64,000 nucleotides of DNA from Heterodontus francisci (lineage: Eukaryota). Position 1 is the stretch's first letter. Every line of letters begins with the position of its first letter. The translations under genes were made by a program, and so were the position numbers. Below the pieces are notes generated by a model. That model saw only the letters and a list, made by a program, of their open reading frames with translations, was not told the DNA's origin and did no database searches. The DNA is taken from contig NC_090404.1 of assembly GCF_036365525.1 (NCBI RefSeq), positions 3,410,001-3,474,000 on the forward strand. The letters are read 5' to 3'. Below are positions 5,600 to 51,951 of the stretch, in pieces.

Positions 5600-5881
5600 T
5601 GGTTCCATCAACTATCATGGGAAATGTCTGGGGATGGCATAGATGGCCATATTATGTACTGGTATCTACAGTTCCCAGGGAAAAGTCTGTGTGGGTAGTC
5701 AGATGTTACGACTCCTCTAATACCAGTTATGTATGTTGACTTGGAAACCGATTCTCTGCTTCAACCGCCAGCTCTACTTTCGCTTTAGGAATGAGCAGCA
5801 TTGTGCCAGAGGATGCCGCCGAGTATTACTGTGCAGCCAGACCACAGTCGGAGCAACCCAGGCTGAGCTGGTGAAGAAACG
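5600..5881 (+). pseudogene. Ig heavy-chain-like V pseudogene, IgW-VH-like (V1), with degenerate 23-RSS
   Basis: Two frames read EMSGDGIDGHIMYWYLQFPGKSL / WVVRCYDSSNTSYVC*LGNRFSASTASSTFALGMSSIVPEDAAEYYCAAR (frameshift and stop). Heptamer CACAGTC 5843-5849, 23-bp spacer, weak nonamer GAAGAAACG 5873-5881. The IgW resemblance (short FR3 RFSAST.SST) is from memory of shark VH families. Confidence 0.8.
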
Positions 5882-6399
5882 CAGACACGAGGAGATGAAG
5901 AAAAAAGACAGCAGAAAACACCGACCAATTTCACTTATTTAACCATCAGATCCTGCAGAAAAATCTGGCGACCCCTCTTTCCAACAAAGACATCATTAAC
6001 CCCGGCAAGGTCACAGAAAAATAAAACACCCTTCAAACAATTTCAAGAAATAACTGCCAGAACGTACTTACAATCTGTAACAAAATTAGCACGCGTGCTC
6101 CAGGTGCTCATGGTTTCCTAAATCATTCCAATAGCCGTCGCATCATCCAAAACCCATAACCATTAAACAATTCCAAAAAAACATCAATTTCACAGTTGTC
6201 GATTGTAAGGTCTCGTTTATGTGGGGTTAGAACTATAGCGATTTCGCACCAGTTCAAATGTCTTGAACTCGCACAGAATACTAGAACAAGCATATTATAT
6301 AATTTCTCGTTAATGTTCAATTACCTTTTGTGTACTTAAGTCCTTCTAATTCCCTATAAATAATGTGGGGATCACATTTCATAAAATCATCCAAGTATA

Positions 6400-6866
6400 C
6401 CTGGGATGGAACATTTAAGCTATGAAGAGAGGTTGTATAGGCTTGGGTTGTTTTCGCTGGAGCAGAGAAGACTGAGGGGTGACATGATCGAGGTGTACAA
6501 GATTATTAGAGGCATAGACAGGGTGGATAGGGAGCAGCTGTTCCCCTTAGTTGGAGGGTCAGTAACGAGGGGTCACAAGTTTAAGGTGAGGGGCAGGAGG
6601 TTTAAGGGGGTTTTGAGGAAGAACATTTTTACCCAGGGGGTGGTGACGGTCTGGAATGCCCTGCCTGGGAGGGTGGTAGAGGCGGGTTGCCTCACATTCT
6701 TTAAAAAGTACTTGGATGAGCACTTGGCACGTCATAACATTCAAGGCTATGGGCCAAGTGCTGGCAAATGGGATTAGGTAGAGAGGTCAGGTGTCTTTAA
6801 TGAATCGGTGCAGACTCGATGGGCCGAAGGGCCTCTTCTGCACTGTATTATTCTGTGATTCTGTGA
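6400..6866 (+). mobile_element. CR1 LINE 3' end, little decayed
   Basis: ORF 6406..6777 LSYEERL..LGLFSLEQRRLRGDMIEVYKI; (ATTCTGTG)n tail at about 6850-6866. Confidence 0.9.
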
Positions 6867-7139
6867 TACAACACAAAGGTCTATTCTTCTGTTGATGTCT
6901 GCGCCAGCTGTTTGGTAGGGTCAGTCAATGAATCCCACTCTCCTGCCTCTTCCCCGTAGCCCTGCAACTCCCTTTTCCCTTCAACTATTTTTCCAGTCCT
7001 CCGTTGAATGTTACTGTTGAATCTGTTTCTCGGACTCTTGCAGGAAGTTATGATCCGGATGTGCTGTCTGAATGGATGATGGAAACAACTTCAAAGAGTC
7101 GGGCAACAAGTTGTGACCAATGGCCGCCTTCAGTGCTGT

Positions 7140-7456
7140 ATGATTACATGATTTACATACAATCCTATAAACAACATTAATATTTAATACTAAATAATAT
7201 TTTGCACTTTACGTATTCCTATTACTGAAATCATAAGCAGTACAGATCAATTTGACAACTTCACGAGCCATTTTAATCGCACTGTTTGCGTTCATGTGGA
7301 TGCCGTCATGTGGTTGCTCTTGACGTCGGTTCCATGCAACCAATAATTTGTATTTTCAAACCCGACTCCTCTGCCGGGTACAGAAATCCCCGCGACTGAG
7401 GATCGGGATGCAACAATCCGCCAATTATTTTACTCACTGAGTGACTGGAGGAACGG
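7140..7456 (+). promoter_or_regulatory. V2 promoter block, paralogous to the V3 and V4 promoters
   Basis: Shares CCAAT, GACTGAG, ACAATC and CTCA(G/C)TGAGTGACTGGAG motifs in the same order as 11780-12123 and 15320-15640. Confidence 0.7.
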
Positions 7457-7459
7457 GAG

Positions 7460-7706
7460 CTCTTGACGTCAAGGCAGTATATGACCGAGTATGGCGTCAA
7501 CAAGCCTCAGCAAAACTGGAGTCAATGGGAATCAGGAGGAAAAGGAAGATGGTTGTTGCTGTTGGAGATCAATCATTTCAGCTCCAGGACATCACTACTG
7601 GAGTTCCTCAGTGTAGTGGCCTAGGCCTAACCATCTTCAGCTGCTTCATCAATAATCTTCCGTCAATCGTAAGATCAGACGTGGAGATGTTTGCTGATGA
7701 TTGCAA
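7460..7706 (+). mobile_element. LINE RT fragment replacing the leader and 5' half of V2
   Basis: ORF 7441..7731 LDVKAVYDRVW...GVPQCSGLG...MFADDC sits between the V promoter and V FR3. Confidence 0.85.
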
Positions 7707-7718
7707 ACTTCGAAAGGG

Positions 7719-7876
7719 TGCAGTCAAGTAGTTAGAAATCGAGTTATTGCTTTCAAAGACCTTTCAAACAATATCTTCACTTTGGTTATTAGGAGTTTTA
7801 CAGTGGAAGACAGCGCTACTTATTATTGTGCATGGATCACAGTGACACGGATCAGACCCAGATCTGCACAAAAAAA
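7719..7876 (+). pseudogene. TAILV-like (Ig-VH-like) V pseudogene V2, 3' half with intact 23-RSS
   Basis: SQVVRNRVIAFKDLSNNIFTLVIRSFTVEDSATYYCAW; CACAGTG 7838-7844, 23 bp, ACAAAAAAA 7868-7876. Confidence 0.9.
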
Positions 7877-7944
7877 CGAACAAAGGGAAATGCAATTTCC
7901 CTCATCATGGAACATCAATAAATCCACCGTTGGCGGCAGTTCAC

Positions 7945-9290: not shown

Positions 9291-9299
9291 GTACCATTC

Positions 9300-12123: not shown

Positions 12124-12629
12124 ATGATGTCACCAATATCTCTCTGTTATCTTTGGGTTTCCTATCCAATGTGTCGCTCGAATTGTCTCCATTTGTTCCA
12201 ATATTTATGTTGCGCTGTTAATCACTCCCCGAGGTGTTACAGAGTCGGGCGTCACTGCACCATATATATATTTTAAATTTTCTACGTGTCCAGTCGGATG
12301 TGGTTTTGACTCAACCAAAGGCAGAGACGCGGCGTCCCGGACAATCCCTGTTATTGACCTGTAAAACCAACGGGTATGATCTCAGCAACTCCCGGATCTT
12401 CTGGTACCAACAAGGTCTCGGGAAGAGCCTGGAATGGCTCGTTTCCTGCTATTATGAAGTCTACAATCAGTACAGTCAAGAGGTCCGAAATCTAATTGTT
12501 GCTTTCAAAGACCTTTTAAACAATATCTCCGCTTTCCAGATCAGTACATTGACAATAGAAGACTGCACTACGTATTATTGCCTTTCAGGGCACAGTGAGA
12601 CGGATCAGGCCCAGATCTGCACAAAAACC
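12124..12629 (+). pseudogene. TAILV-like (Ig-VH-like) V3: open V exon and perfect 23-RSS, but broken leader and splice sites
   Basis: V exon VQS-DVVLTQPKAETRRPGQSLLLTCKTNGYDLS...WYQQGLGKSLEWLV...EDCTTYYC. RSS CACAGTG 12591-12597, 23 bp, ACAAAAACC 12621-12629. Leader exon is 45 nt (46 in V4), donor reads AT, and the acceptor before 12286 lacks AG (TCTAC|GTGTCCAG). Confidence 0.9.
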
Positions 12630-15640: not shown

Positions 15641-16150
15641 ATGATGTCCGTCATATCTCTCGGTTTGTTGCATGGTTTTCCATCCAGTGCGAAGCTCGGA
15701 TTGTTCCCAGTTGTTGCATTGCTTCTGTTTCGCTGGTTTTCCCTCCCAGATGTTTGCCAGAACCAGGGGTCACTTTAGCATATTTAATACTTCTTTACTT
15801 GCATAGATGTTCAGTCGGGTGTGATGTTGACTCGACTAGGAGCAGAGACGCGGGGATCCGGACAGCCCCTGAGACTGACTTGTAAAACCAAAGGATTCAA
15901 CCTTGAGAGCCAGCAGATATACTGGTACAGAGAAGGTCCCGGGAAGGATCTGGATTGGCTCGTTCGGTATTACAGCGAAAACGGCAAGCAGCACAATCAA
16001 AAGGTGAAAGATCGAGTTACTGCTTGCAAGGAAGTTTCAAACAATGTCGTCGTTGCAGATATCAGGACACTAGCAATGGTAGACAGTGCTATTTATTATT
16101 GTACACGGGTCCAAATTGAGATGGATGAGATCCAGACTGGTATAAAAACA
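15641..16150 (+). pseudogene. TAILV-like (Ig-VH-like) V4: intact leader and V ORF, defective RSS heptamer
   Basis: Leader exon 15641-15686 (46 nt, MMSVISLGLLHGFPS, GT donor). V exon from 15807 after CATAG: VQSGVMLTRLGAETRGSGQPLRLTCKTKGFNLES..WYREGPGKDLDWLVRYYSEN...DSAIYYCTR. Heptamer CAAATTG 16112-16118 (no CAC), 23 bp, ATAAAAACA 16142-16150. Confidence 0.88.
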
Positions 16151-17857: not shown

Positions 17858-19312
17858 TTAGAACATTACAGCGCAGTACAGGCCCTTCGGCCCTCGATGT
17901 TGCGCCGACCTGTGAAACCATCTGACCTACACTATTCCATTTTCATCCATATGTCTATCCAATGACCACTTAAATGCCCTTAAAGTTGGCGAGTCTACTA
18001 CTGTTGCAGGCAGGGCGTTCCACGCCCCTACTACTCTCTGAGTAAAGAAACTACCTCTAACATCTGTCCTATATCTATCACCCCTCAACTTAAAGCTATG
18101 TCCCCTCGTGTTTGCCATCACCATCCGAGGAAAAAGACTCTCACTATCCACCCTATCTAACCCTCTGATTATCTTATATGTCTCTATTAAGTCACCTCTC
18201 CTCCTCCTTCTCTCCAACGAAAACAACCTCAAGTCCCTCAGCCTTTCCTCATAAGACCTTCCCTCCATACCAGGCAACATCCTAGTAAATCTCCTCTGCA
18301 CCCTTTCCAAAGCTTCCACATCCTTCCTACAATGCAGTGACCAGAACTGCATGCAATACGCCAGGTGCGGCCTCACCAGAGTTTTGTACAGCTGCAGCAT
18401 GACCTCGTGGCTCCGAAACTCGATCCCCCTACTAATAAAAGCTAACACACCATATGCCTTCTTAACAACCCTATTAACCTGGGTAGCAACTTTCAGGGAT
18501 TTATGTACCTGGACACCAAGATCTCTCTGTTCATCTGCACTACCAAGAATCTTCCCATTAGCCCAGTACTCTGCATTCCTGTTACTCCTTCCAAAGTGAA
18601 TCACCTCACACTTTTCCGCATTAAACTCCATTTGCCATCTCTCAGCCCAGCTCTGCAGCCTATCTATGTCCCTCTGTACCCTACAACATCCTTCGGCACT
18701 ATCCACAACTCCACCGACCTTCGTGCCATCCGCAAATTTACTAACCCACCCTTCTGCACCCTCATCCAGGTCATTTATAAAAATGACAAACAGCAGTGGC
18801 CCCAAAACAGATCCTTGCGGTACACCACTAGTAACTAAACTCCAGGATGAACATTTGCCATCAACCACCACCCTCTGTCTTCTTTCAGCTAGCCAATTTC
18901 TGATCCAAAGCTCTAAATCACCTTCAACCCCATACTTCCGTATTTTCTGCAATAGCCTACCGTGGGGAACCTTATCAAACGCCTTACTGAAACCAATATA
19001 CACCACATCCACTGCTTTACCCTCATCCACTTGTTTGGTCACCTTCTCGAAAAACTCAATAAGGTTTGTGAGGCACGACCTACCCGTCACAAAACCGTGC
19101 TGACTATCGCTAATGAACTTATTCTTTTCAAGATGATTATAAATCCTGTCTCTTATAACCTTTTCCAACATTTTACCCACAATCGAAGTAAGGCTCACAG
19201 GTCTATAATTACCAGGGCTGTCTCTACTCCCCTTCTTGAACAAGGGGACAACATTTGCTATCCTCCAGTCTTCCGGCACTATTCCTGTCGACAATGACGA
19301 CATAAAGATCAT
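17858..19312 (-). mobile_element. Young, 5'-truncated CR1 LINE with an open 461-aa RT C-terminal ORF
   Basis: ORF 17927..19312 with NYRPVSLTS, QHGF, VPQGSVLGP and FADGTK (second catalytic Asp changed to Gly). Confidence 0.95.
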
Positions 19313-19507: not shown

Positions 19508-21313
19508 TGTCACGATCCTGTGTTTTTTTTCTCCTCGGAAATATTGCGGTGGGCCTTTAAGGCTCTAAAAGATCAATACTTCTTTTGGCAGCAAGCTCCG
19601 AAATTAGTGAGCAAAAGTACATTCTGGTTGCCACGTAATAACCATACAGGGACAGAGACATTCAACATACCATTTTTGACTTTGAAACTGGTTTTGCGGA
19701 GATCTTCTCCTATTCCAGCAGTAATTGCCATCAAAGCAATGGACTCTGGGAAGTGAGCAGCCATATCCATGATACTAAGTATGTATTGATGTCCTGCTTT
19801 CGTTTTTGACTACTAATGCCATGCTAAATGGTCTTCCATCATGGGAACTAGTGGTGCCGGTTTTATGGTAGGTTGTGGTATTCCCACTATTTGCCAGGTA
19901 TAGCATGTCCTACAAAATTATCTTACATTCTTTGGAAGAACTGGCCAGTAATAATGTTGGCTTATGCATGATTTGGTCTTATGAATTCCTATACGTCCAG
20001 CAAAGGAATGTCGTGTGCTAACCTTAATAATCCTTGGCGATATTTAGGTGGTACCACTATCAGTTCAACAACCATCCAGTCTTCGTGTGCACGTCAATGG
20101 GGCGGTCTCCATTTCCTCCTCAAAACCCGTTTGCCATATTATAGCATTCTGGAAGTCCTTTAACCTTAGCTTCTGTCAGAACCATCTGTGCTATTTGGTA
20201 TATCTCTGGACCAGCTTGCTGTGCTGCAATGATAGACGATCTGTTAAACATTTCATTTAGATTATAGAAATCCCCAAATAAGTTTTCCAATACTTGACTA
20301 TCTGTTTGTGGTGTTCCTTTTACCTTCGACAATGGATCCTGTTTAGCCATTGCTCGGGTGACTACACATGCAGGACATATTCCCAGAACTTGTTCCTGTA
20401 ATTGCTCTGTTTCCTTAATTTCACTTGTTTCCTCTGTAATTATAGGAGAAACTGATACTTTTGATCCAGCTAAATCATTTCCTAGGAGTAGTTCACTTCC
20501 CTCTACTGGCAAACTGTGGACAACTCCTACAATTACTATCCCAGTTACTCACTAGGTGTACTTTATATAAAGGAACAGATATATACTCCCCCGCCCCCCC
20601 CCCCCCCCCCTTCCCAATTCCATTAACTAAATCTTTAGCGTTCAATGCGCTCTCTGGTGGAAATATTCTATATTTCCCCAGCAAAAGTGCTTGAGTTGCT
20701 CCTGTTTATCTGAGTACAATGATAGGTTTTCCTGCCTCACTTAAAAGATACAGAGTTGTTCTCCCCTTTGACAGAAATCATTATAACTTTCAGGTATTTT
20801 ATTCTTAACTTCTATGCTCCTTTTTATTTTAGTATCTGGTTTACAACTGTTGTTAAAGCTAAAGCTTGATCTGCTATAAACTCAGTTAGAGGTTTTTTCC
20901 TCTGCACAAGCTTTCCATACCCCAACAAGTCCTCTGGCTTTCCCTCACAATTTCTAACACTGTGAACGAAAATGGCCCGTAATGTTGCAATGATAACACT
21001 TCGGCTTGCAAACATCACTTCCAACCTCAGCACCTTCCCTTCTGACACGAGGTCGTGATCCTGGGGCATTCCCAGCTGTTCCTTCTTGTTCCCTACTACT
21101 TGCCTTCCTTTCTTTCTCCCACTTTCTATCTTGCTCGAGTTTATGGGGGTGATGGACAAAATAATTAGACTTATTCACAAGCTCAAAATCATCAGCAATT
21201 TCCGTTACTTGCCTAGCTTTCAAACTTTCAGGACTTCTCACGACTGAAGGAATGGAGTTTTTAAACTCCTCTAAGAGAATCAAATCCAAATGGTTTCATG
21301 TGTGGCATCCATC
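19508..21313 (-). mobile_element. Decayed Gmr1-like Gypsy LTR retrotransposon (SCAN-like gag, CCHC knuckle, protease, integrase)
   Basis: LILLEEFKNSIP...EIADDFELV and CYHCNITGHFRSQC (20954..21289); protease end PVEGSELLLGNDLAG (20120..20512); integrase remnants 19600-20050. Confidence 0.8.
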
Positions 21314-21379
21314 TATAATGCCCGTATCCAACGGTCAAAATTCACTTGCTGCACCCTCTCAAATTCTACATATGTTGGC

Positions 21380-21605
21380 TGAGGGATAATTGTTGGGCAG
21401 GACCGGGAGACCTCTTCAGCTCCTCCTCCAATAGCGTCATGGGATATTGCCCGCACATATGAGGGGGCAGATGATTTAGCGTACCATGTGAATGACAGCA
21501 AAAGATCTTGGACAAAGTAGAACTTCCTCAGAGCTGCGACGCGGAGTGTTGGAGTGGGACTCGAACCCACAATATGTTGTCTTAGAGGCGAGAGTACGAC
21601 CCACT
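21380..21605 (-). repeat. tRNA-derived SINE
   Basis: B-box-like GGTTCGAGTCCC on the minus strand; homologous to 52995-53210. Confidence 0.65.
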
Positions 21606-24600
21606 CAGGAACAGGAAAGAAGTGCAAAAACACTCCATTTCTGAGACTGGAGATTGCTAGAAAACAAAACTGCCAAAAGTACAGTAATTAGAGCAGCAAT
21701 GTAGCTCTCTTGTATTATTGTACAAGGCATGATCAAGTTTACGTCCAACTGAAGTAGGATAAGAAGCCGGTGCATAATTTTATCAGGCCACTTGGGAGTA
21801 ATTCAGCTCTTATATCCTGGTCATACATTCCGTTCTAATGTTTTTGTTCTCACTATCAATTCCTTTCTACAAGGACGATGCCACAGCTATGAGGGTGTAC
21901 ATATCAGGAAACAGTGAACAGGCTGGCTCATTTCTCTGGAAAGAGAAGACTGAGAGGTGAACAGATAGAGGTATTTTTGATCATCAAAGGCTTTGATAGG
22001 GTAGACGTAGAGATGATGGTGAGGAAGAGCAAAACTAGGGATACCAATAGAGTCAGCAAGAAAGTCAATGAGGAATTCAAGTGAAACTTATCTGCACAAA
22101 GAATGTAAGAATGTGGAATTTCCTATCGCAAATCTTAGTCACAGACAATAGCATGGATGCATTTCAGGGGAAGCTAGTTAAACAGAGGAGGAAGAAAAGT
22201 GAGGAAGGATATGCAGATTTTGAAAAATTCTGTCATGGGATATTGGCGTCGCTGGCAAGCCCAGCATTTGTTGCCCATCCTTCGATGTCCTTGAGAACTG
22301 AGTGACTTTCTAGGCCAGTTAAGAGTGGGCCAAATTGCTGTGGGTCCGGAGTCTTTGTCGGCCAGACCAGGGAAGGATGGCAGATTCCCTTCCCTAAAAT
22401 GAACCAGATGGGTTTTTAAGACAATCGTCAATGTTGTCATGGTCACCATTACTGAGACTAGGTTCCAATTCTAAATTTATTAATTGAATTTAAATTCCAC
22501 CAGCTGCCATGTGGGATTTGAACCAGTGTCACCAGAACATTAGCATGGGCATCTGGAATGCTAGTCCAGTGACATTATCCAGTATGCCACTCTTTCCCCT
22601 CGGAACAGCTAATGAGGTGTGGGCGGAGGCTTGTGCGGAGAACATAAGAAACAGAAACATCATTCGGCCATTCGGCCCTTCGAGCTTGATCCGCAATTCA
22701 ATACGATCATGGCTGATCATCTATCTTAACTCCACCTTCCTGCACTATCCCAAAGTCTCTGAATTCCGGGAGTACCCACACATCCAACCATCTATGTATT
22801 GAATATACTCAACGACTGAGTAACCACAGCCCTCTGGAGTAGATAAATGAGATAATTGTGGAGACAACCCCCTGAGTGAAGAAAGTTCTCCTCCTCTCAG
22901 TGTTAAATGTCCGGCCTCTTATTCTGATACCATGAGCTCTAGTCTGAGCCTCTCCAGCAAAGGGCATCATCCAGTCTGTCAAGCCCTTTAAGTAGTGTAT
23001 ATGCTTCAATTAGGCATGGGCCAGTCGACTGGTCTGTTTCTGTTCCGTACACTCTGTTTAATTATGTAACAAAGACATTCCGCTCGCTGTGTTTGTGCTG
23101 GTTCTTTATCAAAGTATGGTGTCAAGAATTGAACACAATAACCAATGATTTGTAAAGCTTGAGCACCACTACCTTGTTTTTTAATATTCATTGGCCATAT
23201 TCATAAAGCCGAGTGTCACATGCATTTTCTTAACTGCCTTATCATTTTGCCCTGCCGGTATCAAAGATTTTCGGACATGCTCCCTCAGGTCTTTCTGCTG
23301 TCACATCCCCCTCAACGTCAGACCATTTAGATCACACTCCCTCTCCATGTTGCTTTTTACAATGTGCTGCTAGTTGAATTTGAAGCCTGCAGAAAAAAAA
23401 ACAGACATCCTACAATTCATATCTGCAGGGCACCTGGGGAACCCATACTTCCGGTTTTTCCATCCAGTACTTGAACCCGGCTCCCTCGCTGCCTCCGCGT
23501 AACTCTCGGGGCCATGAAGTCTGTGCAGAATTTTGCAGTATAGGGTACGTTGGCACTGACATGAAAACCAGCATTACCCAGAGTAATCTTTCAGTTGTAT
23601 TTTGACAATGTTTGCAATAACGAACGCTTTCTTGAACAGGGTATGTAACACAAGTCATCTTAGCTGTCTAAATCTACTGGAAAGGGAGGACCTATTTCTG
23701 TTCGTAGAGCGGTCAATCACCAGGGCCCATGGATCTCAAGTAATTGATGGAAGGATTAGAGGGGAGTTGAGGAATACATTCTTTCACCCAGAGAGTTGTG
23801 TGATTTTGGAACCCACTGCCTGAAAGGGTGGTAGCGGCAGAAACCATTATTTCATTTAAAAAATGGAATGCATTTGATCTGCCGTATCCTGGAGGACTAC
23901 GGACCGAGAGCTGGAAGGTGGGATTAAGCTGGACAGCTCTTTCTCGGCCTGCCCAAACATTGTGGGCCGAATGTCATCCTCCCACGTCGTAAACGTTTTT
24001 ATGTTTCTATGTTTCTTCACATTTATCCACACTAAACATTTCACCAGGGCGACTCTCTCGGTCTCCTGAAGGCTTATACATCTGCATGACAAAGTCGCCG
24101 TGATTTGCATCATCCACAAACTTTGAATTTGTATTCCCTATACTCATATCTTCGTCATGTACATTTATAAAAAATTGTCCCTGCACACTTCTTTCCAGTC
24201 AAAAAAAACATACGTTCACCGCAACTCAAGTGAACATGAATTTATGTGGTACTTTATCAAATACCTTCTGAATGTTCATAGACACAGCGTCTACTGTATG
24301 ACCTGCATCGGCCCTCTATGTTACGTCTTCAAACTGTATCATAATATAGATAGGGAGTTAACTACAGAGAAATAAACAGAGACTATGGGTTAACCAGGGG
24401 TCGAGATGCCAAATAGTGGGAAATTATGTTCCAGAAGGATAGGTACTGACGCGGCTGATGCTCACAATTTCGACGTGATGTGTACTCGGGCGGCAGAAAT
24501 GTAACTTTTAAATTGTAAGTCCAAATTAGAGGAATACAGAAAATACTGAGGAACATCCTGAGAAAATAGAAGACGTTGTTAATATACTTGCAGAAGAGAC

Positions 24601-24773: not shown

Positions 24774-27700
24774 TGTTACGACCAGGTGAGAAAGAGGTCC
24801 AGCGGGTCCCTTTCAGTCTTTGCCTGGTTTAATTGTAATAGGGTTTGATTTTATTAACACGGTGTTTTAGCTCCCCTTCAGTGAATCCTTGTTCACTGCT
24901 TTCCAATTGTAAGGCAAAGAAATCAATCCAACAGGTTTTCTTAGATTTAAACACGAAAGGTGGAAGTTTATTAACCTTAAACTTTAATCCAGTTAACGAC
25001 AATGAATACTCGACACGACCACATTAGCATGCATAGCGATAAATACGCACGCAGGTAGAGACAGAAAAAGCAGAAAGAATAAACGGGAAAAGTCTGAGGC
25101 AACAGAATCATAGAATCATAGAAAGTTTAAGGCACCAAAAGAGGCCAATTGGCCCAACGTGTCTGTGCCGACCGAAATTTTAATCCCACCTTTCAGGATT
25201 TGGTCCATAGCCCTGCAGCTTACAGCACTTAAAGTGCATATCCAAACTCCTTTTGAATGAGTTGAGGGTCTCTGCCACAACTATCCTTTCAGGCAGTGTG
25301 TTGCAAACCATCACCACTTCTGGGTGGAAAAGGTTTTCCTCATCTCCCCTCTAATTTTTCTGCCAATTTCTTTAAATCTATGTTCCCTTGTCACTGACAT
25401 CTCTGTCACGGTGAACAGACCCTTCACCTCCTCTCTCTCCAGGCCCCTCAAAATTTTGCACATTTCAAGCAGATCTCCCCTCAGCCTTGTCTGTTCCAAG
25501 AAGAACAAACCGAGCGTATCCAATCTTTCCTCATAGCTGCATTTTTCCAGTCCTGGCAACATCCTTGTAAATCTCCTCTGTACCCACTCTGGTGCAATTA
25601 CATCCTTTCCGTAATGAGGTGAACAGTACTGCACACAGTACTCAGGTTGTGGCCTAACTAATGAGTTATACAGCTCCACCACAGTCTCCCTGCTCTTGTA
25701 TTCTATACCTCGGCTAATAAAGGAAAGTATTCCATATGCCTTCTTAACCATCTTATCGACCTGTCCTGCTAACTTCAGGGATCAATGAACATTCATTCCA
25801 AGGTCCCTTACTTCCTCTACAAGTCTCAGTATTTTCCTATGAATCGTGTATTCTTTTGCCTTTTTTGACTTCCCCAAATGCATCACCGTCCACTTCGCCA
25901 AGTTGAATTCCATTTGCCAGTTTTCTGTACATCTGACCAAGCCATCAATATCTTCCTCCAGCCTACAGCTATCCTCCTCGCCATCTACCTCATGACCAAT
26001 AATTATGTCGTCCTCAAACTTCTTCATCATGCCTCCTACATTTACGTTCAAATTGTCAATATGCCCCACAAAAATCTGGGGACCCAGTACTGAGCCCTGT
26101 GGAACGCCACTGGAAACAACCCTCCAGTCGCTAAAACAGCCAGCAACAATTACTCTTTGTTTCATGCCATTGAGCCAAATTTGTATCTACCTTGCCCTGG
26201 ACCCCATGGGATTTTTTAAAATTTAATGTATTTTTTTAGTCTGCCATGTGGGACCTTGTCAAAAGCCTTACTAAATTCCATGTAGATCACATCAACATCA
26301 ACTGCACTACCCTCATCTATCTTCCTTGTTACTTCTTCGAAAAAGTCAATCAAATTGGTCAAACAAGATCTCCTCTCAACAAATCCATGCTTACTATCAT
26401 TGATTAACCTGTGTCTTTCTAAGTGACATTTAATCTTGTTTCTCAGAATAGATTCCAATAATTTGCCCACTATTGAGATTCGACTGACTATTCGGCCCAT
26501 CCATGCCTCCGTTTTTAAACAGAGGTACAACATGAGCAATTCTCCAATCCTCTGGCATCACACCTGTATTCAGCGAAGACTGGAAAATGATGGTCAGACC
26601 CTCTGCTATTTCCTCTCTTGCTTCCTTTAACAGCCTAGGATACATTTCATCTGGCCCTCGTGATTTATGAACTTTCAAGGATGCGAATCCCATTCATACT
26701 TCCTCTCTCCCTATATTTATCACATCCTATACTTCACAGTCGTCCTCCTTAACTACAATATCTGCATCATCCCCCTCGTTTGTGAAGACAGACAGAAAGT
26801 ATTCATTGAGAACCATACCAATATCGTTCTCTCCAATACATTGGTTAAATTTTTGATCTTTTATGGGCCCTACTCTCTCCTTAGTTATCCTCGTACTCTT
26901 AATGTATTGATAAAAACATTTTTGGGTTCACCTTGATTTTGCTTGCCAATATTCTTTCATGCCCTCTCTTTGCTTTCTTAAATTCCTTTTTGATTTCGCC
27001 CCTCCACTTTCTATACTTCTCTCGCATTCTGTAGTATTGATTTCTCGGTGTCTGACATAAGCATTCCCTTTCTGCCTTATATTACCCTGTAGGCTCCTTG
27101 ACATCCATGGGTTGGTAGATTCGGCAGCCTCACCTTTTTCTTTGGGGAAATGTTTACACTGAACCCCTTGAATCTCCCCTTTGAATGCCTCCCACTGTTC
27201 TGACACTGATTTACCTTCAAGTGGCTGTTTCCAGTCCACTTTCGCTAAATCACTCCTCAGTTTTGTAAAATTGTCCTTGCCCCAATTGAAAGTCTAACTC
27301 CTATTCTATCTTTGTCCTTTTCCATAATTATGTTAAAACTGACTGAATTATGATCACTACAACCAAAATGTTCTCCCACTGCCATTGCTTCCACCTGCCC
27401 ATCTTCATTTCCTAAAACTAATCTAAAATTGCGCTCTCTCTGGTTGAACGTGCTACGTGCTGGGCAAAACAATTTTCCAGCATGCACCTCAAGAATTCTT
27501 CTCCCTCAATTCCTTTCACACTAAAACTATCCCAGTTAATGCTGGGGTAGTTAAAAATCCCCTACTATTACTGCCCTATTGTTCTTGAACTTCTCAGAGA
27601 TTTGCTTACATATCTGCAGTTCTATCTCCCTCTGACTGTTTGGGTGTCTATAGTACAATCTCAGCAGTGTGCTTGCCTCTTTTTGGTTCCTTAGCTCAAT

Positions 27701-30700
27701 CCATATGACCTCATTTGATGAGCCTTCCAACGTATCATCCCTCCTCACTGCTGTAATAGTTTCCTTGCCCAAAATTGCCACTCCCCCTCCTTTCCTATCC
27801 CCTTCCCTATCGTGTCTGAAAACGCTGTAACCAGGAACGTTGAGGTGCCATTTCTGTCCCTCCTTAAGCCATGTTTCTGTAATAGCTATGATATTATACT
27901 GCCACGTGTCTGTCTGTGTCCTCAGCTAATCTGCTGCCTTATCTGTACTCCTTGCATTGAAATAAATACCCTTGAGCACTGCCAAACACTTTTATTTAAA
28001 AATTTTCTAACCCTCATTTCATCGGACTTCCAGACTCATCCATTAACTTTCTGCCTTCCATTTTCTTTTCTGATTTTGTCCCAGCTGAGTCTACCTTCAG
28101 GTTCCCATCCCCCTGACAAACTATATAACCCCTCCCCCACAGCACTAGCAAAACGTCCCACATGGAACTCAGTCCTGGCTCTGTGTAGGTGCAAACCATC
28201 CAGCCTGTACCTGTCCCATCTGCCCCAGAGTCGGTCCCAATGTCCCAGGAATTTGACGCTGTGTGTTTACAGTCCTTTGAGTTCAATATGGAGTATTTGG
28301 TTGCCGGTAAGTCTTGCTGTTCGTTGGGGCACATTTACGCTTTAATGTGTTTCGATGTTGGACTCTTCTCTCTTGAGGTTTAAGTGACTTCAGTGGGTCT
28401 GGAGGTTTGTAAGAAAGTGTGAGAGAGCCAGCCAGGAGAGAAACTCTCTTTTTCCAGGTTCATTTGCAATCTGCAGTCTGTCTTCACACTGTCCTGTGTC
28501 TAGTTAAAAAAAAAAGCCTGGGCCAGCCAGTTAGTCATGTGACCAGCTGGTTTAACCACTCCTGCGTTTGTGGATTTTCCATCTTAGCAGACACTGGAAT
28601 GCAATCTTTCTTACACCTTCAATGTCTGGTGATCATAATCCATTTGGGTTAATTGGACCAGGGAGTAGTTGCTTTGTCTCTCCAAGAAATGTCTTTTAGT
28701 ATTTAAATGCCCTCCAGCCAACTGTCTGGTAATGACTTTAATCAAGTCATTTCTTCACCCCAGTAACAGTTTAAAATTAATGTACATATGACGAAATTGA
28801 TATGCTTCATTCTTGGCACATGTGACGAAATTGATATGCTTCATTCTTGGCACATGAGACCTCCACACCCAGCAGAATGAAACGCATTTTTTTTAACAAG
28901 AGCATTTCATTAAAAGGGACTAGAGAGAAGATAAGTACAGGAAAACACCCATGCATCTCTCTCATTCATTCAGATATCCTAACATTTGTTGCAGACTGTC
29001 TTTTCTTGGTAGCAGTGCTACGATAAGCTGCCCTTTTTGGCATCCCAATAAATATGTGGTTTATGGGAAAGTTTTTCAGTTTGCATATTTCTATGACTGC
29101 CTAGGGTGTCTTTGTTCTTGTTGAGGTCTGCAGGTGGAGGGTTCGATTTAACTAGACCAAGGTTGGAGTTCTGCTCATGGGCGGAGGCAGTGGGCGATTC
29201 CACTCTGATCTCTCTTTCAGTGCTTTGATTAGTCATGCAAGGGCTTTTCACGTTAGGAGATGGTTGGTTCAACATTTTCATGACTGTGGGGGAGGATTCT
29301 TTGCTAAACTTGCCTGTATCCTCTGGGACACACCTGCTTGCTGGGATTTGCCCAGATTCTACTGCACTCCCCTGCGACACTTCGACTAGATGAGGCATCA
29401 TCCTCACGGTTTCTCTACCATCTTGAGGACTTTCTTTGTCTCTGCAGGTTCCTGGAAATGTTGTTAGCAACTCTGGTAGGTTGCTTCTAGTGTCTGCATT
29501 TACATAGGAGGATGTGGCATCGAATTGTTCAAAATTTTGCAGCTGGCTGACCAGACAGTAGGGTTTTACATCCAGGATTCCTCCTGGACTTCCGTTAGCC
29601 TGCAATCTTTGTCCCTTTTTCTCCTTTCCTTTCTATCCTTTAGCCAGCCTTGTGCCTGCCTGTCTCCTTTTGTTCTCGGCAGGGGTCCCTTACGGTTCAT
29701 TAGCCCTCTGCTGGAGGATCCTCCAAACACCGATACAGGACGTAGTGGTGCAAATTTCACTGGAGGTTGGGGTCTCACCTCGACCTGGCATATGTGGCAA
29801 CTCCTACAGTACTCCACCACATCTTTGTGGAGTTTAGGCCAGTCAAGCTGCTGTCTTATGCGGGTTTTGGTTCTTTGTATACGGACATGTACAGCCATTT
29901 TTTATATATTTTTTATTTTTTATATTTCTGTCTAGTACATCTGTGGCACCACTAACTGGTAAATCACTATCTACTCCTTGCTTTCAGGTCTGTGAGGAGA
30001 ACTCCACTTACTCATCAGTACCTCATTCCTTAATTTAAAAGTAGCAATCAGGGACTCTCTCTGCTTCAATTTCAGACAGGGCAGCCTGTGCTAACTCTCT
30101 GAATACTGGGTCAGCTTGCTGAGCCTCAGCTAGGGAAAATCCATTTAACTCATTCCCTGGGTCTTCTAACTTTCCAAAGAAAGCCTTGGACAGACAGACC
30201 TCATGGTCATCTGCCTGCAGTGCTAATTCAGTCAACTCTCGGGGACCTGGTTTGATCATGGCCTGATTTATTACACATTCAGGAAAACTGCAGGGGACCG
30301 TCTCCTGCCACTACCATGTCTCTCTGACCTTATGCGGTCTCTCTTTCACCACTGAGGAAGCTACCACCTTCGTCCCTGCCAGATCATTACCTTGGAGCGG
30401 GTCAACTCTATCAACAGGCAAACTAGGGACAATCCCTACGGTCAACGATCCCAAAACTAGGTCGCACTCCAAGTGCACCCGGTGTAAAGGTACAGGCAGA
30501 CACTCCCCTCCAATACCATTCACCACAATTCTGGTGTTTACTGGACTCTCTAGGGGGAAAGTTCAGGCCTTTTCCCAGTAAAAGGGATCTAGTGGCCCCT
30601 GTGTCCCTGAGAATTATAATGGGCGTGATGGCCCCACCCTTGGGGTATGGAGTTACTCTCCCTTCAGACACAAATCCCTGATAATCTTCAGGAGTCGTAA

Positions 30701-31877
30701 TAAATTTTCCTGCACTTGCAGCCATAAGCTTCCTGGTCTCACTGTTACTGCAGTTAAAGCCACAGCTTGCTGTGCTGTGCTTTCCATTAGGGCCCCTTCT
30801 CCGTCACTGAGTGGGAGTGCCCTGATTAACCCTACAGGTTTTCCATTTACTTTCCAGAAATCAGCTCTTGGATGCCCTGCTTTATTACAATGGAAGCATA
30901 CAGGTCTCCGGGGGTCACTCCTACTTACAGCATCTTCCTTCTTCACTGGAGGACAGCCCCCTGCGTCCCCTGCTTTTCTTTCCCTCCCAGGACTGCTTGG
31001 GCTTCTAGCACCTTTCCACCCTTTGTCCTATTCGGATTTGTGGGTGTCATTAGGAAAGGTTTCACTATGTTTTAGCTTCCCCTCAGTGAATCCTTATGCA
31101 CTGCTTTCCAATTGTAGGGCAAAGAAATGAATCCAACATTTTCCTTAGATTTGACCAAGAAAGGTGGAAATTTATCAACCTTAAACTCTAATCTGGTTAA
31201 TGACTATGAATACACGATGCAACCACACTCGCATGCATATGCGATAAACACACACACAGATAGAGATGGAAGAAGTAAAAAGAATAAAGGGGAGAGTTTG
31301 AGGCAATAGATGGGTGTATTTACAGTCCTTTGAGTTCATTGTCGAGTCTTTGGTGGCTGGTAAGTCTTGCAGTTCATTGGGGCCCATTCACACATTAACT
31401 TGTTGCAGTGTCAGAGTCTTTTCTCCCTTGAGGTTTAAGCAACTGCAATGGGTCCGGAGGTTTGTGAGAAAGCGAGAGGGAGCCAGCCAGGAGAGAGGTT
31501 CTCTTGTTCCAGGTTCAGTTGCAATCTGCAGTCTGTCTTCAAACTGTCCTGTGTCCAGTTGAAAAAAAAAGCCTGTGCCAGCCAGTTAGTTATGTTACCA
31601 GCTGGTTTAACCACTCCTGCTTTTGTGAATTCTCCATCTTAGCAGACAGTGGAATGCGAGCTTTCTTACACATTCATGTCTGGTGATCAAAATCCATTTG
31701 GGTAATAGGACCAGGGAGTAGTTGCTTTGCCTCTACAAGTACCGTCTCTTAGTACAGTCAGATGTCTGATGATCTCTTTAAACAAGTCATTTCTTCACTC
31801 CAGCAACAGTTTAACGTTAGTGTTCATATGATGAAATTAATATGCCTCATTCTTGGCAGGTGGGTGTTTTCATGACA
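24774..31877 (-). mobile_element. Gmr1-like Gypsy LTR retrotransposon, internally deleted, 4-bp TSD CCAT
   Basis: TGTTAC...ATGACA ends; CCAT at 24770-24773 and 31878-31881. LTR copies at 24774-25104 plus 28258-28858, and about 31063-31877. Knuckle CFHCNKAGH, protease ILRDTGAT, integrase Zn-finger WPKLHKDVVEYCRSCHICQ directly after the protease. Confidence 0.9.
25105..28257 (-). mobile_element. CR1 LINE nested inside the left LTR
   Basis: (AGAATCAT)n tail at 25105; RT fragments 25311-26693; APE endonuclease 27551..27781 (WIELRN...YYRHPNS...IVGDF); LTR sequence resumes at about 28258. Confidence 0.9.
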
Positions 31878-33337
31878 CCATAAAAAAGCCAAACCAAATG
31901 AACTGAGGTTCATTTCTACTGGGGTAGCACTGAAAAGCAGAGACGTAATGTTCAACTTGTTTCGAATCTTGATTAAACCACATTTGGGAGTACTGCAGAT
32001 ATATCTGTTCTTCTTATAAAATGATATAGAAGGCCTGGAGAAAAGGCAAAACAGATTCCCACAAATGATACCAGAGCAGAAATAATATACTTATCAGAGA
32101 AGGTTGAGAGCTGGACTGATGAAGGTCAATAAAATTATGGAATGGTTTGATTGGGTACATGTAGAGATCTTGTTTCCACTTCTGAGGGATCCTGAGGGAG
32201 TCCGAAACTATATCCAATATAGATTTCAATAGAAACTTATTTTTCCAGAGATTAGTTAGCATGTGGCACTCACTACCACAAGAAATAGTTTAAGCAAATA
32301 CAGATGCATTTAAGCTGAAGCTTGATAACTCTATGAGGCAGAAAGGAATACAAATTACGTTGATTGGTTAGATGTAACGGGTTCAGAAGACTCCTGTGGA
32401 ACATAAACACCAGCATGGATCAGTTGGCACATTTTATGGAATGCTGTGTACAATGTACAATATTTAATTGAGCTTGTTAAGCTGTAATTGCCATGGTAGA
32501 GGCTCTCAACAGCACCTCAACTGGGGGTTGGGTGTAAGTCCAGTGTGGCAAGTTTACATAGAAAGATTCCGTTGAAACATGGCAATGGGAATTTATAATG
32601 GAAATGTGGACTGGAAGTAGCACAAAGTGCATTTAGATCTTATAGATCCTTAATGTATTAATATGTGTGTTGCACTTTCGCGTGTGAAAGCAAAAACTTT
32701 TATATCAGTTTATCACCTCATATTTAATCAGGAACTTCAAGAACCTGGTAACTACGATGTTTACATTGTAACTTCTCCTGCTGTGAAAACCATCATCCAT
32801 GTCTATGTTACCTCTGGACTCGACACAGCTCAATTTCTCTCCTGGCCGGCCTCCCACCTTACACACTCTGCATATCTTAATTCGCACCTAATCTGGTTCA
32901 CCCAGCATCTCTGAGATCGCTGATTGGCTCCAGGAAAGCCTGGATTTTATGATTCTCATCCTTGTAGGCAAATCCCTCTCTTCCCTCATTATGTAACCTG
33001 CTCCAGCCTGCAAACTTCTGTCCCTCCAATAGTCTCCTCTTGTGTGTCCACCACTTCATTTCTCAGAGTATTGACTGCGCCCTGTGCTCTGGAATTCCCG
33101 ACATGAATCTCTTCCCTCTGTCTCCCTCTGTTCCTGTCAGACGTTCCTTAAAACATACCAATCTTTCCATGCTTCCGGTCACCTGTCTTAATATCTCCTC
33201 GGTGTTTGTTCGATGACGCTTATGTGAAGTCCAATGGAACGTTTGAGACGTGAAAGTGAAACAGGTTATTGTTGCATCTTTCAGTGAGGTTCTGCTGCAG
33301 CTACGTCATATGACCCGGTTGGCAGCAGCGAGTGAAC

Positions 33338-33409
33338 AGTTTTTGTGCTGATTTGTATCACTGTGGTACGCACAGTCGTTAAATCTCCTTTAGCGCCCGC
33401 ACAATAACC
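33338..33409 (+). CDS. TRDD: TCR delta D segment (coding GTACG 33366-33370) with 5' 12-RSS and 3' 23-RSS
   Basis: AGTTTTTGT-12bp-CACTGTG-[GTACG]-CACAGTC-23bp-ACAATAACC. Confidence 0.93.
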
Positions 33410-33686
33410 TCCCAGCTACACAGAACAGTGGAAGGGCTCTCTCAACACCCCCGTGATAGTAACAACGCTTACCACACACTCCCCGAATCCTTACCGCTTT
33501 ACATTCTATTAATTTTGCAGTGTTTTCTCTCCTGAAGATGCATTGCTGTGTTCATTCTTTGGATCGCCGGATCCTAAAGTCATGTCCAGTTTATTCACTG
33601 GTCTTGTACGTCTGGAAAAAGGGGATGGGTAACTTGGAGATGTGGAAGAGACGTCAATGGATCTTGTTGTAGGATTAAACGGTGTG

Positions 33687-33749
33687 TAACATCTGGTGCA
33701 ACTGACAAGCTCACGTTTGGAAATGGAACCAGGCTGATTGTTGAACCCA
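33687..33749 (+). CDS. TRDJ: J delta 1 (TSGATDKLTFGNGTRLIVEP)
   Basis: GGATCTTGT-12-CGGTGTG; FGxG motif; GTAAGT donor; resembles mammalian TRDJ1 TDKLIFGKGT. Confidence 0.92.
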
Positions 33750-35605: not shown

Positions 35606-35666
35606 TATAATAATATTTATAGCAAGTTAATATTCGGTAGTGGAACCGAAGTGACCGTGGAGCCCA
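35606..35666 (+). CDS. TRDJ: J delta (YNNIYSKLIFGSGTEVTVEP)
   Basis: Heptamer CACGGTG 35599-35605, weak nonamer; GTGAGT donor. Confidence 0.9.
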
Positions 35667-46930: not shown

Positions 46931-46999
46931 TTAGGTATGGTGACTGGACTAAACGCAATCTCATATTTGGAGCTGGGACTAAATTAATTGTAGAACCAA
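46931..46999 (+). CDS. TRDJ: J delta (RYGDWTKRNLIFGAGTKLIVEP)
   Basis: AATTTTTGT-12-TAATGTG; GTAAGT donor. Confidence 0.9.
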
Positions 47000-47736: not shown

Positions 47737-47798
47737 TACCTCTAGTTATAGGGCGCCGTTGACGTTCGGAGCTGGGACAGATCTCACAGTGCAACCAA
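47737..47798 (+). CDS. TRDJ: J delta, most C-proximal (TSSYRAPLTFGAGTDLTVQP)
   Basis: CGAATTTGT-12-CACTGTG; GTAAGT donor. Confidence 0.92.
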
Positions 47799-48789: not shown

Positions 48790-49470
48790 GATAGAATCAA
48801 CGAGTCACTACTGCTCAGAACGAAGCCATTACAGCCATCGAGTCCATGCCGGCTCCTGTAGAGCTGTCTAGTCAATCCCATTCCCCCCACCCTACGCATG
48901 TAACTCTGCAAGTTTATTTCCCTCAAATGGCCATCAAGTTTCCTTTAGAAATCAATGATTGTCTCCCCTTCCACCACTCTCGTGGACAGCGAGTTCCATA
49001 ACATTATCATGCTTTGCATAATAAGGTTCTTTCGCACATCCCCTCTGCATCTCTTGCTCAGAACCTTAAATCTATTCCCTCTAGTCCTTGTACCACCAGC
49101 TAATGGGAACAGTTTCCTTTACCTACCTTATCCCAACTTGTCCTAATCTTTTTCACCTTTAACACGTTTCCCCTCAATCTCCTTTGCTCCATAGAGAACA
49201 ACTTCAGCATCTCCAGCCTGACCTTGTAGCTAAATTCCCGCTTCCCAGGAACCATTCTTGTAAATCTCCCCTGCACCTTCTCAAGGACCCTCGCATCCTT
49301 CTGAAAGTGTGGTGATAAGAAATAGACGCAATTCTCTAGTTGTGGGCTAACCAGAGCTTTATAACGGTTCAGCATAACTTCCCTGCTTTTGTACTCAATA
49401 TTTCTATTTATGAAGCTCAATATTCCATATGCTTTTCTACCTACTCTCTCACTATGCTCTGGCACCATCA
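48790..49470 (-). mobile_element. CR1 LINE 3' fragment
   Basis: ORF 49100..49483 KAYGILSFINRNIEYKS...RRLRGN. Confidence 0.8.
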
Positions 49471-50183
49471 GAGATCTGAGCACGTGATTACCGACATCCG
49501 TACATTTAGAAATTATGGGGTGGATTTTTCTCGCAAAAGTCTAGCTTACACAATCAAAAATGACACCTAAGGACAGCAATTGTTTGATCACAAAAGTTAT
49601 GGTCCTTTATGGAATTAAAACAGTAATCCATATCCGTTGGGAAAAGGGGACGACAAATATTTAGGAATTGTAATTAAAGTCAACAAATGAAGAACAATGT
49701 TTGCCGCTTTATTCAAGGATTTGAGCAAACATTTTACAAGAAGTCATTAATTTCAAATTGCCACATTGTAACCATTCTTTACGCATCGAGTTTTTGGATT
49801 ATGGGAGGCCTTTGAACCGGCAATGATTGAGAGTTTTTAATGATGGAAGGATTTGATAGGGGAGATAGAGGGAAACTATTTCCTCTGGTGGGGAAGTCCA
49901 GAACAAGGAGGCATAACCTTACAATTAGAGCGATGCTGAGCAGGGTTGATATCGGGAAGCACCTCTTCACGCAAAGGGTAATGGAAATCTGGAACCCTCT
50001 GCTCTATAACTAACACTGAAAAGATATCCATTAGAATAATGATACTCGGGTGTAGTGAGCAAATGCGGGTGGATGGAATTATGAGACAGATCAGCCATGT
50101 TCTAATTGAATGCAGGAACATACTAGAGGGGTTCACTTTGAAGGAGTCTGATTATTTTCCCTTTTTTATTCTTGTATTTTCAG

Positions 50184-50477
50184 AGAAAAAAGATGCTAAA
50201 GAACCAACGTTGTCAATCTTTTACCCACCCGTGTTATCAAATCCAGTCGTAGGCACTAGCGACACGGCAGCAGTATGTCTGACCTCGGACTTCGTGCCCA
50301 AAGAGATCGAACTCTTCCTGAGTGTGGGCGCTGACCCAAAGATAAATGTCACAAGATCCAGTGTCTTATTAAACAACGGGTACTACTGGAGTTCAGGGTT
50401 CCTCTCTATCCCGCCGGACCAGAAATCAGGACAGATCACGTGTGAGGCAAAACACAATGGTCAAAATATTTCTGCTG
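50184..50477 (+). CDS. TRDC: TCR delta constant region exon 1 (Ig C1-type domain)
   Basis: Acceptor TTTTCAG; KKDAKEPTLSIFYPP...AAVCLTSDFVPKEI...GYYWSSG...ITCEAKHNGQNISA; GTGAGT donor; no C-strand Trp, as in TRDC. Confidence 0.93.
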
Positions 50478-51066
50478 GTGAGTGATAAGGTTTTATGGAA
50501 GAAAAATCTTGCATTTAGACAGCAGCTTTTGAAAACCAAAGAACTTCCCGTGTCTCTTACCTCACAATGGAGTACCTTCTGAAAATTAGTCACTGTTTTA
50601 ATTCGGGGAAATGACAGTGCCATTTAGCGCTCAGCCATGTTCCACAACCAGTAATGTGACACAGATCATCTGTTTCGGTGACTGACTAAATATTGGCCAG
50701 GGCATCGTAGAACTGCCTACCTTCAGAATTGTGCAATGGGGTCATTTATGCCCACCTGAGAGGGTATATGGGGCCTCCATTTGACGATTCATTTGAAAAA
50801 TGGCACCTCTGTCACTGCATTGATGTACCACGCTGGTTTATGGGCTTAGATCCCTGAAGTGGTGTCGAACTCACAACCTTTGAACTCAGAGGTCAGTGTC
50901 AGTCACCGCTAATAGCCGACCAATAAACCAATACTACATTTTGATTATGACTTCCTCCATTACTGCTCGTAACGACAACGATAAAAATAACAAAAGTCGT
51001 AGAAATAACCTCAATAACCGCAAGAAAGTAACTTACTGAATTAATAATAAAAATAATTGTTTGCAG

Positions 51067-51138
51067 GTACAGGAAAATTGATTGATTGTGGAAAACGTTC
51101 AAGTGATTCCCTCGGAAGACTAAAGGACATCGAAAACG
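51067..51138 (+). CDS. TRDC: TCR delta constant exon 2 (connecting peptide with interchain Cys)
   Basis: TTGCAG acceptor; 72 nt, phase 1-1; GTGKLIDCGKRSSDSLGRLKDIEN; GTCAGT donor. Confidence 0.8.
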
Positions 51139-51544
51139 GTCAGTCCTTTACACACAAAATGATTCGGTAAAAGACTGGCAAACAGACAGATATTTACTTT
51201 ATTCTTTCACGGGATGCGAGCATCGCTGGCTGGACCAGCATTTATTGCCCATCCCTAATTGCGCTTGAGAAGGTGGTGGTGAGCTGCCTTCTTGAACAAC
51301 TGCAATCCATGTGGGGTAGATACACCCACAGTGCTATTAGGAAGGGAGTTCCAGGATTTTGAGCCAGCGACAGTGAAGGAACGGCAATATAGTTTCAAGT
51401 CGGAATGGTGTGTGACTTGGAGGGGAACTTGCAGGTTGTGGTGTTCCCATGCATCTGCTGCCATTGCCCTTTTAGGTAGTAGAGGTTGCGGGTTTGACAG
51501 GTGTTGTCGAAGGAGCGTTGGTCAATCTTGTAGAAAGTAAGCGG

Positions 51545-51785
51545 ATAGACAGAAAAGCAGACCAAGAAATTGACAAATTGATAAGATAGATAGATTGACA
51601 GACTCGAACAGATAGATAGTGAGATACATACATATAGAGTGGTAGAGAGTTTGATTGCTAAATAGAGAAACAGACAGAATTGATTAATACAGATATAGAG
51701 ACAGATGGATAGAGAGACAGACATACAGAGAGATTGATTGATAGACAAAGAGAGAGAGAATTATATAGATAAGAGAGAGAAAGCG
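51545..51785. repeat. Degenerate (AGAT/AGAC/AG)n simple repeat
   Basis: Visible purine-rich tetranucleotide tract in Cdelta intron 2. Confidence 0.8.
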
Positions 51786-51840
51786 AGATATGCTGGACCC
51801 AGCCAACTAAATCAAGGATTTGATTTGATATTTATTACAG

Positions 51841-51951
51841 ATCTACCGAAGGTGAATTTTTTGTCTTTGACGGTGATGGGATTGAGAGTTCTCTTCTTTA
51901 AAAGCATTGCCTTCAATGTCATGATGACCGCCAGGGTGTTGCTCTTTTAAG
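51841..51951 (+). CDS. TRDC: TCR delta constant exon 3 (transmembrane and cytoplasmic)
   Basis: DLPKVNFLSLTVMGLRVLFFKSIAFNVMMTARVLLF*; TM Arg/Lys pair of alpha/delta chains; KVNxxSLTVxGLR is delta-like; stop 51948-51950 followed by a GTAAGC donor. Confidence 0.93.

Follow-up and report, generated by a model that had tools for sequence, protein, structure and literature searches.

Which V segments can be joined to a T cell receptor (TCR) delta constant gene that lies, in a shark, behind antibody-type V segments, and to what kind of unit does this gene belong? The question is raised by a 64-kb stretch of the 6.0-Gb genome of Heterodontus francisci (contig NC_090404.1, here G000:C34; G000:C34:3410001-3474000), called the window in the following. 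Coordinates of variable (V), diversity (D), joining (J) and constant (C) segments refer to the window unless G000:C34 is given. The DNA examined comprised the window, 300 kb on either side of it and 20 distant V loci. The analysis suggests that the window represents the copied half of an inverted duplication within the TCR alpha/delta locus, and that its constant gene, here termed Cdelta2, likely encodes a second delta chain. We assign this reading a probability of about 0.75.

Organization of the window

The window contains four V-like segments resembling those of the immunoglobulin (Ig) heavy chain (IgH-like; V1 to V4 at approximately 5.5, 7.7, 12.3 and 15.8 kb), one D segment, 13 J-like segments and one C gene. 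A preliminary description of this DNA had placed IgH-like V segments upstream of a D segment flanked by recombination signal sequences (RSS) with 12-bp and 23-bp spacers, of J segments with 12-RSS and of a Cdelta gene. This layout is real and the Cdelta gene is intact. The claimed absence of conventional TCR V segments from the 64 kb was also borne out.

RSS were counted at a cut-off of ≤3 mismatches, with 100 mononucleotide shuffles as control. Three 23-RSS were found on the plus strand and seven 12-RSS on the minus strand, with none in the opposite polarities; the shuffled controls gave means of 0.11 and 0.12 RSS and maxima of 1 and 2. The observed polarity is far above chance. V segments with 23-RSS, a D segment flanked by a 12- and a 23-RSS and J segments with 12-RSS are the arrangement of a TCR delta unit. 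No D, JH or CH was found between the V segments and the D segment, and Jalpha and Calpha are linked to the locus. A V-D-J cassette on a supporting V, as in NAR-TCR or TCRmu, was not observed in the window; no J lies among its V segments.

The D segment, D delta 2 (33338-33409, plus strand), has a 5-bp core (33366-33370) between its 12-RSS and its 23-RSS. The J-like segments follow on the same strand from 33649 (start approximate) to 47798. Nine to ten of them look usable; three of the 13 (43045, 43574 and 45191) are clearly defective, and the segment at 35633 has a weak nonamer. Two further signals were rejected: the apparent 22/24-spaced RSS at 47785 falls within the last J and the splice donor of that J, and the 12-RSS at 61799 is part of a repeat that no J follows.

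The constant gene Cdelta2

TCR delta constant genes consist of an Ig exon, an exon for a Cys-bearing connecting peptide, a transmembrane exon with Arg and Lys, and an untranslated fourth exon. Cdelta2 presents this set of features on the plus strand. Exon 1 (50184-50477) encodes an intact C1-set Ig domain, exon 2 (51067-51138) a connecting peptide with Cys, and exon 3 (51841-51951) the transmembrane segment with Arg and Lys and a short tail ending at the stop codon. The three coding exons are in frame and their splice sites are intact. The start of a likely 3' untranslated exon 4 (55249-55300, end unmapped) is deduced from a 15-base loose end in RNA, which also matches the mirror copy described below.

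The Cdelta2 protein is 56% identical to Cdelta1, the constant region of that mirror copy, versus 24% to Calpha of the same genome, and 40-59% identical to the gene models of four other sharks. A profile built from the two Cdelta copies found proteins of a ray and a skate named 'T cell receptor delta constant' (E 1.7e-15 and 2e-10). The constant region can be assigned to delta, as previously claimed; a better match to alpha was not seen among the sequences compared, which held no TCRgamma C. A search of PDB with the C domain gave nothing but Ig constant domains and did not discriminate delta from alpha.

An inverted pair of delta units

A genome-wide search for Cdelta, in which 15 candidates were scored, yielded two matches on opposite strands and 157 kb apart. 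In a self-comparison their surroundings formed a collinear mirror, which reaches from the V region to a point 5 kb beyond the C gene. On the minus strand, at a distance of 15-110 kb upstream of the window, is the mirror unit. Nine V-like hits, five of them intact IgH-like V segments, belong to it, together with a D of 16 bp, 19 J-like segments and Cdelta1. Beyond Cdelta1 follow 101 Jalpha motifs (G000:C34:3190236-3271853, minus strand) and then the Ig exon of Calpha at about G000:C34:3184600. In the plus-strand unit, one of six V segments is intact (G000:C34:3409469-3409971) and ends 29 bases before the window. No Jalpha lies behind Cdelta2, and in the 300 kb past the window no J motif was found on the plus strand except one germline-joined JH. 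Of this inverted pair, the minus-strand unit is the standard locus and the window the duplicate. This second, inverted Cdelta unit was missed in the preliminary description and is the real addition of this locus.

Between the two units, identity is 81-94% in seven non-coding blocks that were aligned and in the first intron of C. V4 has a pseudogene as its mirror counterpart (85% identity), and the mirror unit lacks a block of 7 kb present at 24.8-31.9 kb of the window. Judged by their sequences, the two units appear too different to be haplotypes and far too alike to predate the split of sharks and tetrapods. Because of the non-coding identity of 81-94% and a synonymous divergence (dS) of 0.25 in the Ig exon, we infer that the duplication is far younger than this split.

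The second unit might instead be an assembly artefact, either an uncollapsed haplotype or a misjoin. The genome is large, and multiple near-identical Cdelta models on separate scaffolds in another shark demonstrate that artefacts of this kind can arise. However, the two copies differ by 6-19% in non-coding DNA and by 44% in the Ig-domain protein, and they carry different insertions, as the 7-kb gap shows. Moreover, the Cdelta2 exons and a Cdelta1 base at 51906 were recovered in the same four sequencing runs, while the orientation rests on the assembly. An artefact is extremely improbable.

In the 45 kb upstream of each D, every V segment is IgH-like. Past Cdelta2 lie conventional Valpha/delta segments (minus strand, 53-55 kb), a germline-joined IgH V-D-J and NAR-TCR-type pairs (190-230 kb); we take these V types to be as named from their likeness to shark gene models. 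The germline-joined IgH V-D-J (G000:C34:3593527-3593900, plus strand) is situated within the TCR V array 130 kb beyond Cdelta2 and has an open frame. Behind each of the supporting Vdelta-like segments of two NAR-TCR-type pairs (G000:C34:3653341-3653467 and 3678346-3678535, minus strand), three or four 23-RSS are repeated in tandem at a 63-bp period. Many of the Jalpha motifs behind Cdelta1 stand in tandemly repeated cassettes of 3-5 kb. The non-coding block at 56493-57306 is 93.5% identical to its mirror, above the other blocks, and is a candidate for a 3' regulatory element or a converted tract.

Probable transcripts of Cdelta2

Four sequencing runs of one sample from one study were used as contigs only; they were taken to be RNA by guess (none is recorded as RNA). 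Both coding introns of Cdelta2 were bridged at GT..AG in all four runs. In three runs the contigs listed over exons 1 and 2 carried no deviating base; the remaining run and one of those three showed a lone variant, at 50413. Because Cdelta1 is only 79% identical in exon 1 and 69% in exon 2, these contigs stem from Cdelta2. The apparent variant at 51906, present in all four runs, is the Cdelta1 base; therefore both Cdelta genes are represented. Contigs began exactly at the exon 1 boundary (50184) in two runs. In two of the four runs contigs covered the unrearranged flank of D and J1 (33250-33731 and 33413-33731), which fits germline transcription or DNA carry-over.

Divergence of the two constant genes

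The bases of Cdelta1 and Cdelta2 are 98% identical in the transmembrane exon (2 of 111 differ), 79% in the Ig exon, 69% in the connecting peptide and 82-86% in the adjacent introns. Non-synonymous differences in the Ig exon (56 of 220 sites) exceed the differences in the adjacent introns (266 of 1702 sites; Fisher p=0.0005). As far as the sequences tell, this pattern fits a kept CD3-docking segment and an outer domain that may be diversifying or relaxed; selection is not proven. In the transmembrane exon (51841-51951) none of the 23 synonymous sites differs (p 0.004-0.02), and the flanks differ by 13-20%. This lack of synonymous change might be due to gene conversion.

Second receptor gene or decaying duplicate

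Several observations weigh against a second delta chain. Five of the six same-strand V segments are broken, the D has 5 bp and three of the 13 J segments carry defects, a picture consistent with decay. The joints listed included no V-D-J or J-C joint; the stretch covered held no V, and this is no evidence either way. The four runs represent a single sample of a single study, with the RNA status guessed. The ratio of non-synonymous to synonymous divergence (dN/dS) of the Ig exon is 1.24 and not different from 1 (p=0.62), which makes relaxed constraint possible, and the intron identity, taken from gapped alignments, may be inflated. Finally, none of the five inner branches of the Cdelta tree is supported, and the tree gives no date or sister relationship.

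The damaged segments, the contigs over the unrearranged D-J1 flank and a dN/dS indistinguishable from 1 are also what would be expected if Cdelta2 were a decaying duplicate, one whose spliced transcripts are mostly sterile germline ones and which seldom yields a receptor. Yet Cdelta2 has kept an intact reading frame, every splice site, the two Ig cysteines, the Cys of the hinge and the Arg and Lys of the transmembrane segment despite a non-coding divergence of about 15-20%; the neighbouring V segments gathered lesions meanwhile, and nine to ten J segments retain RSS and splice donors. Contig starts at the exon 1 boundary in two runs are as expected if several upstream partners splice in. We therefore regard decay as unlikely and favour Cdelta2 as the gene of a second delta chain.

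V segments of the window

The preliminary description had taken V1 to V4 as the germline source of chimeric Ig/TCR receptors. The CAC of the RSS heptamer and the GT/AG of the splice sites are required for a functional V segment. V1 (5544-5881, plus strand) is an IgH-like V pseudogene of a second, divergent lineage. Its first Cys is replaced by Trp, a frameshift lies near 5689 and a TGA at 5737, the nonamer of its degenerate 23-RSS (5843-5881) is decayed, and no leader was found in the 900 bp upstream. V2 (7704-7876, plus strand) is reduced to the 3' part of an IgH-like V, whose 23-RSS (7838-7876) is good; its 5' part is replaced by sequence resembling a long interspersed nuclear element (LINE). 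V3 (12124-12629, plus strand) is IgH-like, with an open V frame and a perfect 23-RSS (12591-12629). Relative to its paralogues it carries a 1-nt deletion in the leader, causing a frameshift, and has lost the donor GT and the acceptor AG. V3 is likely a pseudogene that RAG could still cut. V4 (15641-16150, plus strand) is an IgH-like V with intact leader, splice sites and frame. Its heptamer, CAAATTG at 16112, is without the invariant CAC, and V4 is predicted to be unable to rearrange.

When leader, splice sites, frame and RSS were tested, none of the four window V segments was intact, and six paralogues outside the window passed. The statement that every V has a 23-RSS holds for V2 and V3, which have good signals, and fails for V1 with its degenerate nonamer and for V4 with its broken heptamer. 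Similarly, the IgH-like framework motifs ascribed to every V are not general, as V1 is without DVVLTQP, LTCKT and KD.SNNIF and belongs to another lineage than V2 to V4. The four segments are IgH-like and correctly oriented, and V2 and V3 retain good 23-RSS, as a germline source would. However, each carries a disabling lesion, although another haplotype might hold intact alleles. Because all four are damaged, it is very unlikely that V1 to V4 are the source of chimeric receptors; six intact IgH-like V segments lie 0.4-41 kb outside the window.

The interval between V4 and D (17930-19312, 20100-21700 and 24800-31900) contains putative LINE-type reverse transcriptase remnants, with one open stretch of 461 aa, and two broken pieces resembling long terminal repeat (LTR) retrotransposons.

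Relationships of the V segments

V3 and V4 are 43-51% identical to the IgH-cluster V segments of the genome versus 18-30% to its TCR V segments. A V tree of 38 rows was calculated, which left out broken copies, the NAR-type V segments of this genome and the 4 of 20 distant loci that yielded no matching V. In this tree V3 and V4 group with five intact paralogues just outside the window (support 97/96); the V2 fragment was assigned to their lineage by nucleotide identity. The group joins the V segments of a catshark V-J-Cdelta model and of a basking shark model in a 9-row clade (99/99), which is placed inside the IgH V part of the tree, separate from the TCR V segments and set apart from IgM and IgW VH. 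The IgM and IgW labels of the comparison segments are those which we take to apply. The identities and the tree agree with the earlier claim that the V segments are IgH-like and not TCR-like; clustering with TCR V segments was not seen in this comparison, which left out TCRgamma.

V1 represents the second of the two V lineages. Its intact paralogue (G000:C34:3376856-3377137, minus strand) forms a lone long branch, and the lineage is 44% identical to IgM-type and 40-42% to IgW-type V segments. The best matches of this paralogue elsewhere in the genome are IgH-type V segments on the same contig. In a PDB search with an intact paralogue, the best 60 matches listed were all antibody constructs; a near-homologue search with an intact V gave no candidate, and no sequence named as TAILV came up in the searches. 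From their sequence, the window V segments are best filed as putative TCRdelta-associated IgH-like V segments, short of strict membership in the TCR-associated Ig-like V (TAILV) group.

A V1-type segment stands 1.5-2.1 kb ahead of a V3-type segment three times, at G000:C34:3377137/3375589 (minus strand), G000:C34:3408130/3409636 (plus strand) and 5544/7704 of the window. As described for other elasmobranchs, dozens of IgH-type V exons occur on G000:C34 between about 1.4 and 13.8 Mb, on both sides of the TCR alpha/delta core; of 150 scored, 68 were matches. For the catshark, Table S1 of Flajnik et al. 2025 (PMC12227049) gives a 'TAILV' 1.8 kb ahead of an 'IgWVTCRD', possibly the equivalent of the V1-type/V3-type pair.

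Proposed rearrangements

Following the 12/23 rule, RAG would join V segments with 23-RSS to the 12/23 D and the 12-RSS J segments. The intact same-strand V (G000:C34:3409469-3409971) would join D2/J2 by deletion, and the five intact IgH-like V segments of the mirror unit would join by inversion, as would the minus-strand Valpha/delta and NAR-TCR V segments beyond Cdelta2. If those distal V segments were joined to Ddelta1 or Jalpha by deletion, the window unit would be excised entirely. Trans-rearrangement of IgM or IgW V segments from clusters on the same contig would be a further possible V source. The product is predicted to pair with TCRgamma and CD3 via a transmembrane segment that has hardly changed, and its extracellular part is much diverged. 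Cdelta2 likely uses IgH-like V segments, and antibody-type receptors would likely be built from the intact V copies just outside the window.

The two constant genes may also have divided their work, with Cdelta2 specialised for antibody-like V segments (the IgH-like V of the locus and trans-rearranged IgM/IgW VH) and Cdelta1 for conventional and NAR-TCR V segments. The IgH-like nature of all V segments within 45 kb upstream of either D would suit such a division, as would the orientation of Cdelta2, which faces away from the deletional direction of the conventional V array, and the extracellular exons, which diverged faster than the introns. An inverted VHdelta-D-J-Cdelta cluster is known from the frog, according to PMC3457774. 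However, five of the six intact IgH-like V segments point at Cdelta1, and the 12/23 rule would let the conventional minus-strand V segments located 53-55 kb past Cdelta2 be joined to it by inversion. A specialisation of Cdelta2 is possible but doubtful. Just as tentative is the idea that the shark lineage independently built a frog-type second, inverted and expressed delta isotype with a positively selected extracellular domain and mainly antibody-type V segments.

Comparison with known loci

Elasmobranch TAILV or Ig-TCRdelta V segments were reportedly described by Deiss et al. in 2019. The preliminary description had considered that IgH-like V segments ahead of D-J-Cdelta may be an undescribed arrangement. 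This does not hold, since Table S1 of PMC12227049 lists TAILV, then IgWV-TCRD, then TCRA for the catshark, and six Ig-TCRd V, then the delta constant, then TCRa C for the stingray. As in H. francisci, the IgH-like V segments of both species lie within the TCR alpha/delta locus directly upstream of D-J-Cdelta. Their sheets show one delta constant each, on one strand, whereas the present locus has a head-to-head duplicate with a second intact Cdelta and damaged window V segments. PMC5931798 states that shark delta uses IgM and IgW V segments and NAR-TCR. Antibody-type V domains on shark delta chains are known; added here is an inverted, intact and spliced second TCRdelta unit.

A second Cdelta occurs in frog and zebra finch, and Xenopus tropicalis has an inverted VHdelta-Ddelta-Jdelta-Cdelta cluster, as PMC3457774 reports. 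Like the frog locus, the shark locus has a second, inverted D-J-Cdelta unit with VH-like V segments inside alpha/delta. Unlike there, the duplication took in the IgH-like V segments, both units carry them and the introns still align (dS 0.25). By its sequence the shark duplication appears to be a separate, younger event and not the early tetrapod D-J-Cdelta duplication, so that it would work alike without being a member. The second unit is likely an independent parallel to the frog arrangement. In Pleurodeles waltl, TRD haplotype 2 has two TRDC-J-V clusters in opposite orientation, according to PMC12698447; the newt locus differs in being without VHdelta, without D and detached from TRA. The galliform second TCRdelta locus and mammalian TCRmu, as covered by PMC3457774, similarly combine an extra delta-derived constant with antibody-like V segments. 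They are, however, translocated out of alpha/delta, and TCRmu has two V domains, while the shark unit stays in the locus with a single V-D-J set.

In the open literature no description of a second shark Cdelta was found; two key shark papers lie outside that search. The accessible parts of PMC3964593, PMC12529555 and PMC5278385 hold nothing on a second shark Cdelta. The closest database proteins to the locus are shark gene models. Speaking against uniqueness are five Cdelta-bearing models of Mustelus asterias, three known by sequence and two as members of 90% clusters, whose scaffolds all differ in length; these models are either real copies or uncollapsed haplotypes.

Implications

If Cdelta2 yields receptors, the duplication and inversion of D-J-Cdelta proposed for tetrapods in PMC3457774 recurs in cartilaginous fish. 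If the frog-type reading is true, the shark locus would be a living parallel to the step that has been proposed as leading to mammalian TCRmu and the second delta locus of birds. Cdelta1 and Cdelta2 differ in 21% of their Ig-exon bases, so that Cdelta-specific 5' rapid amplification of cDNA ends (5'RACE) can ask whether antibody-type, NAR-TCR and conventional V segments sort between the isotypes and whether joining by inversion is used. Studies of the delta repertoire with one set of C primers would see half the picture in this species.

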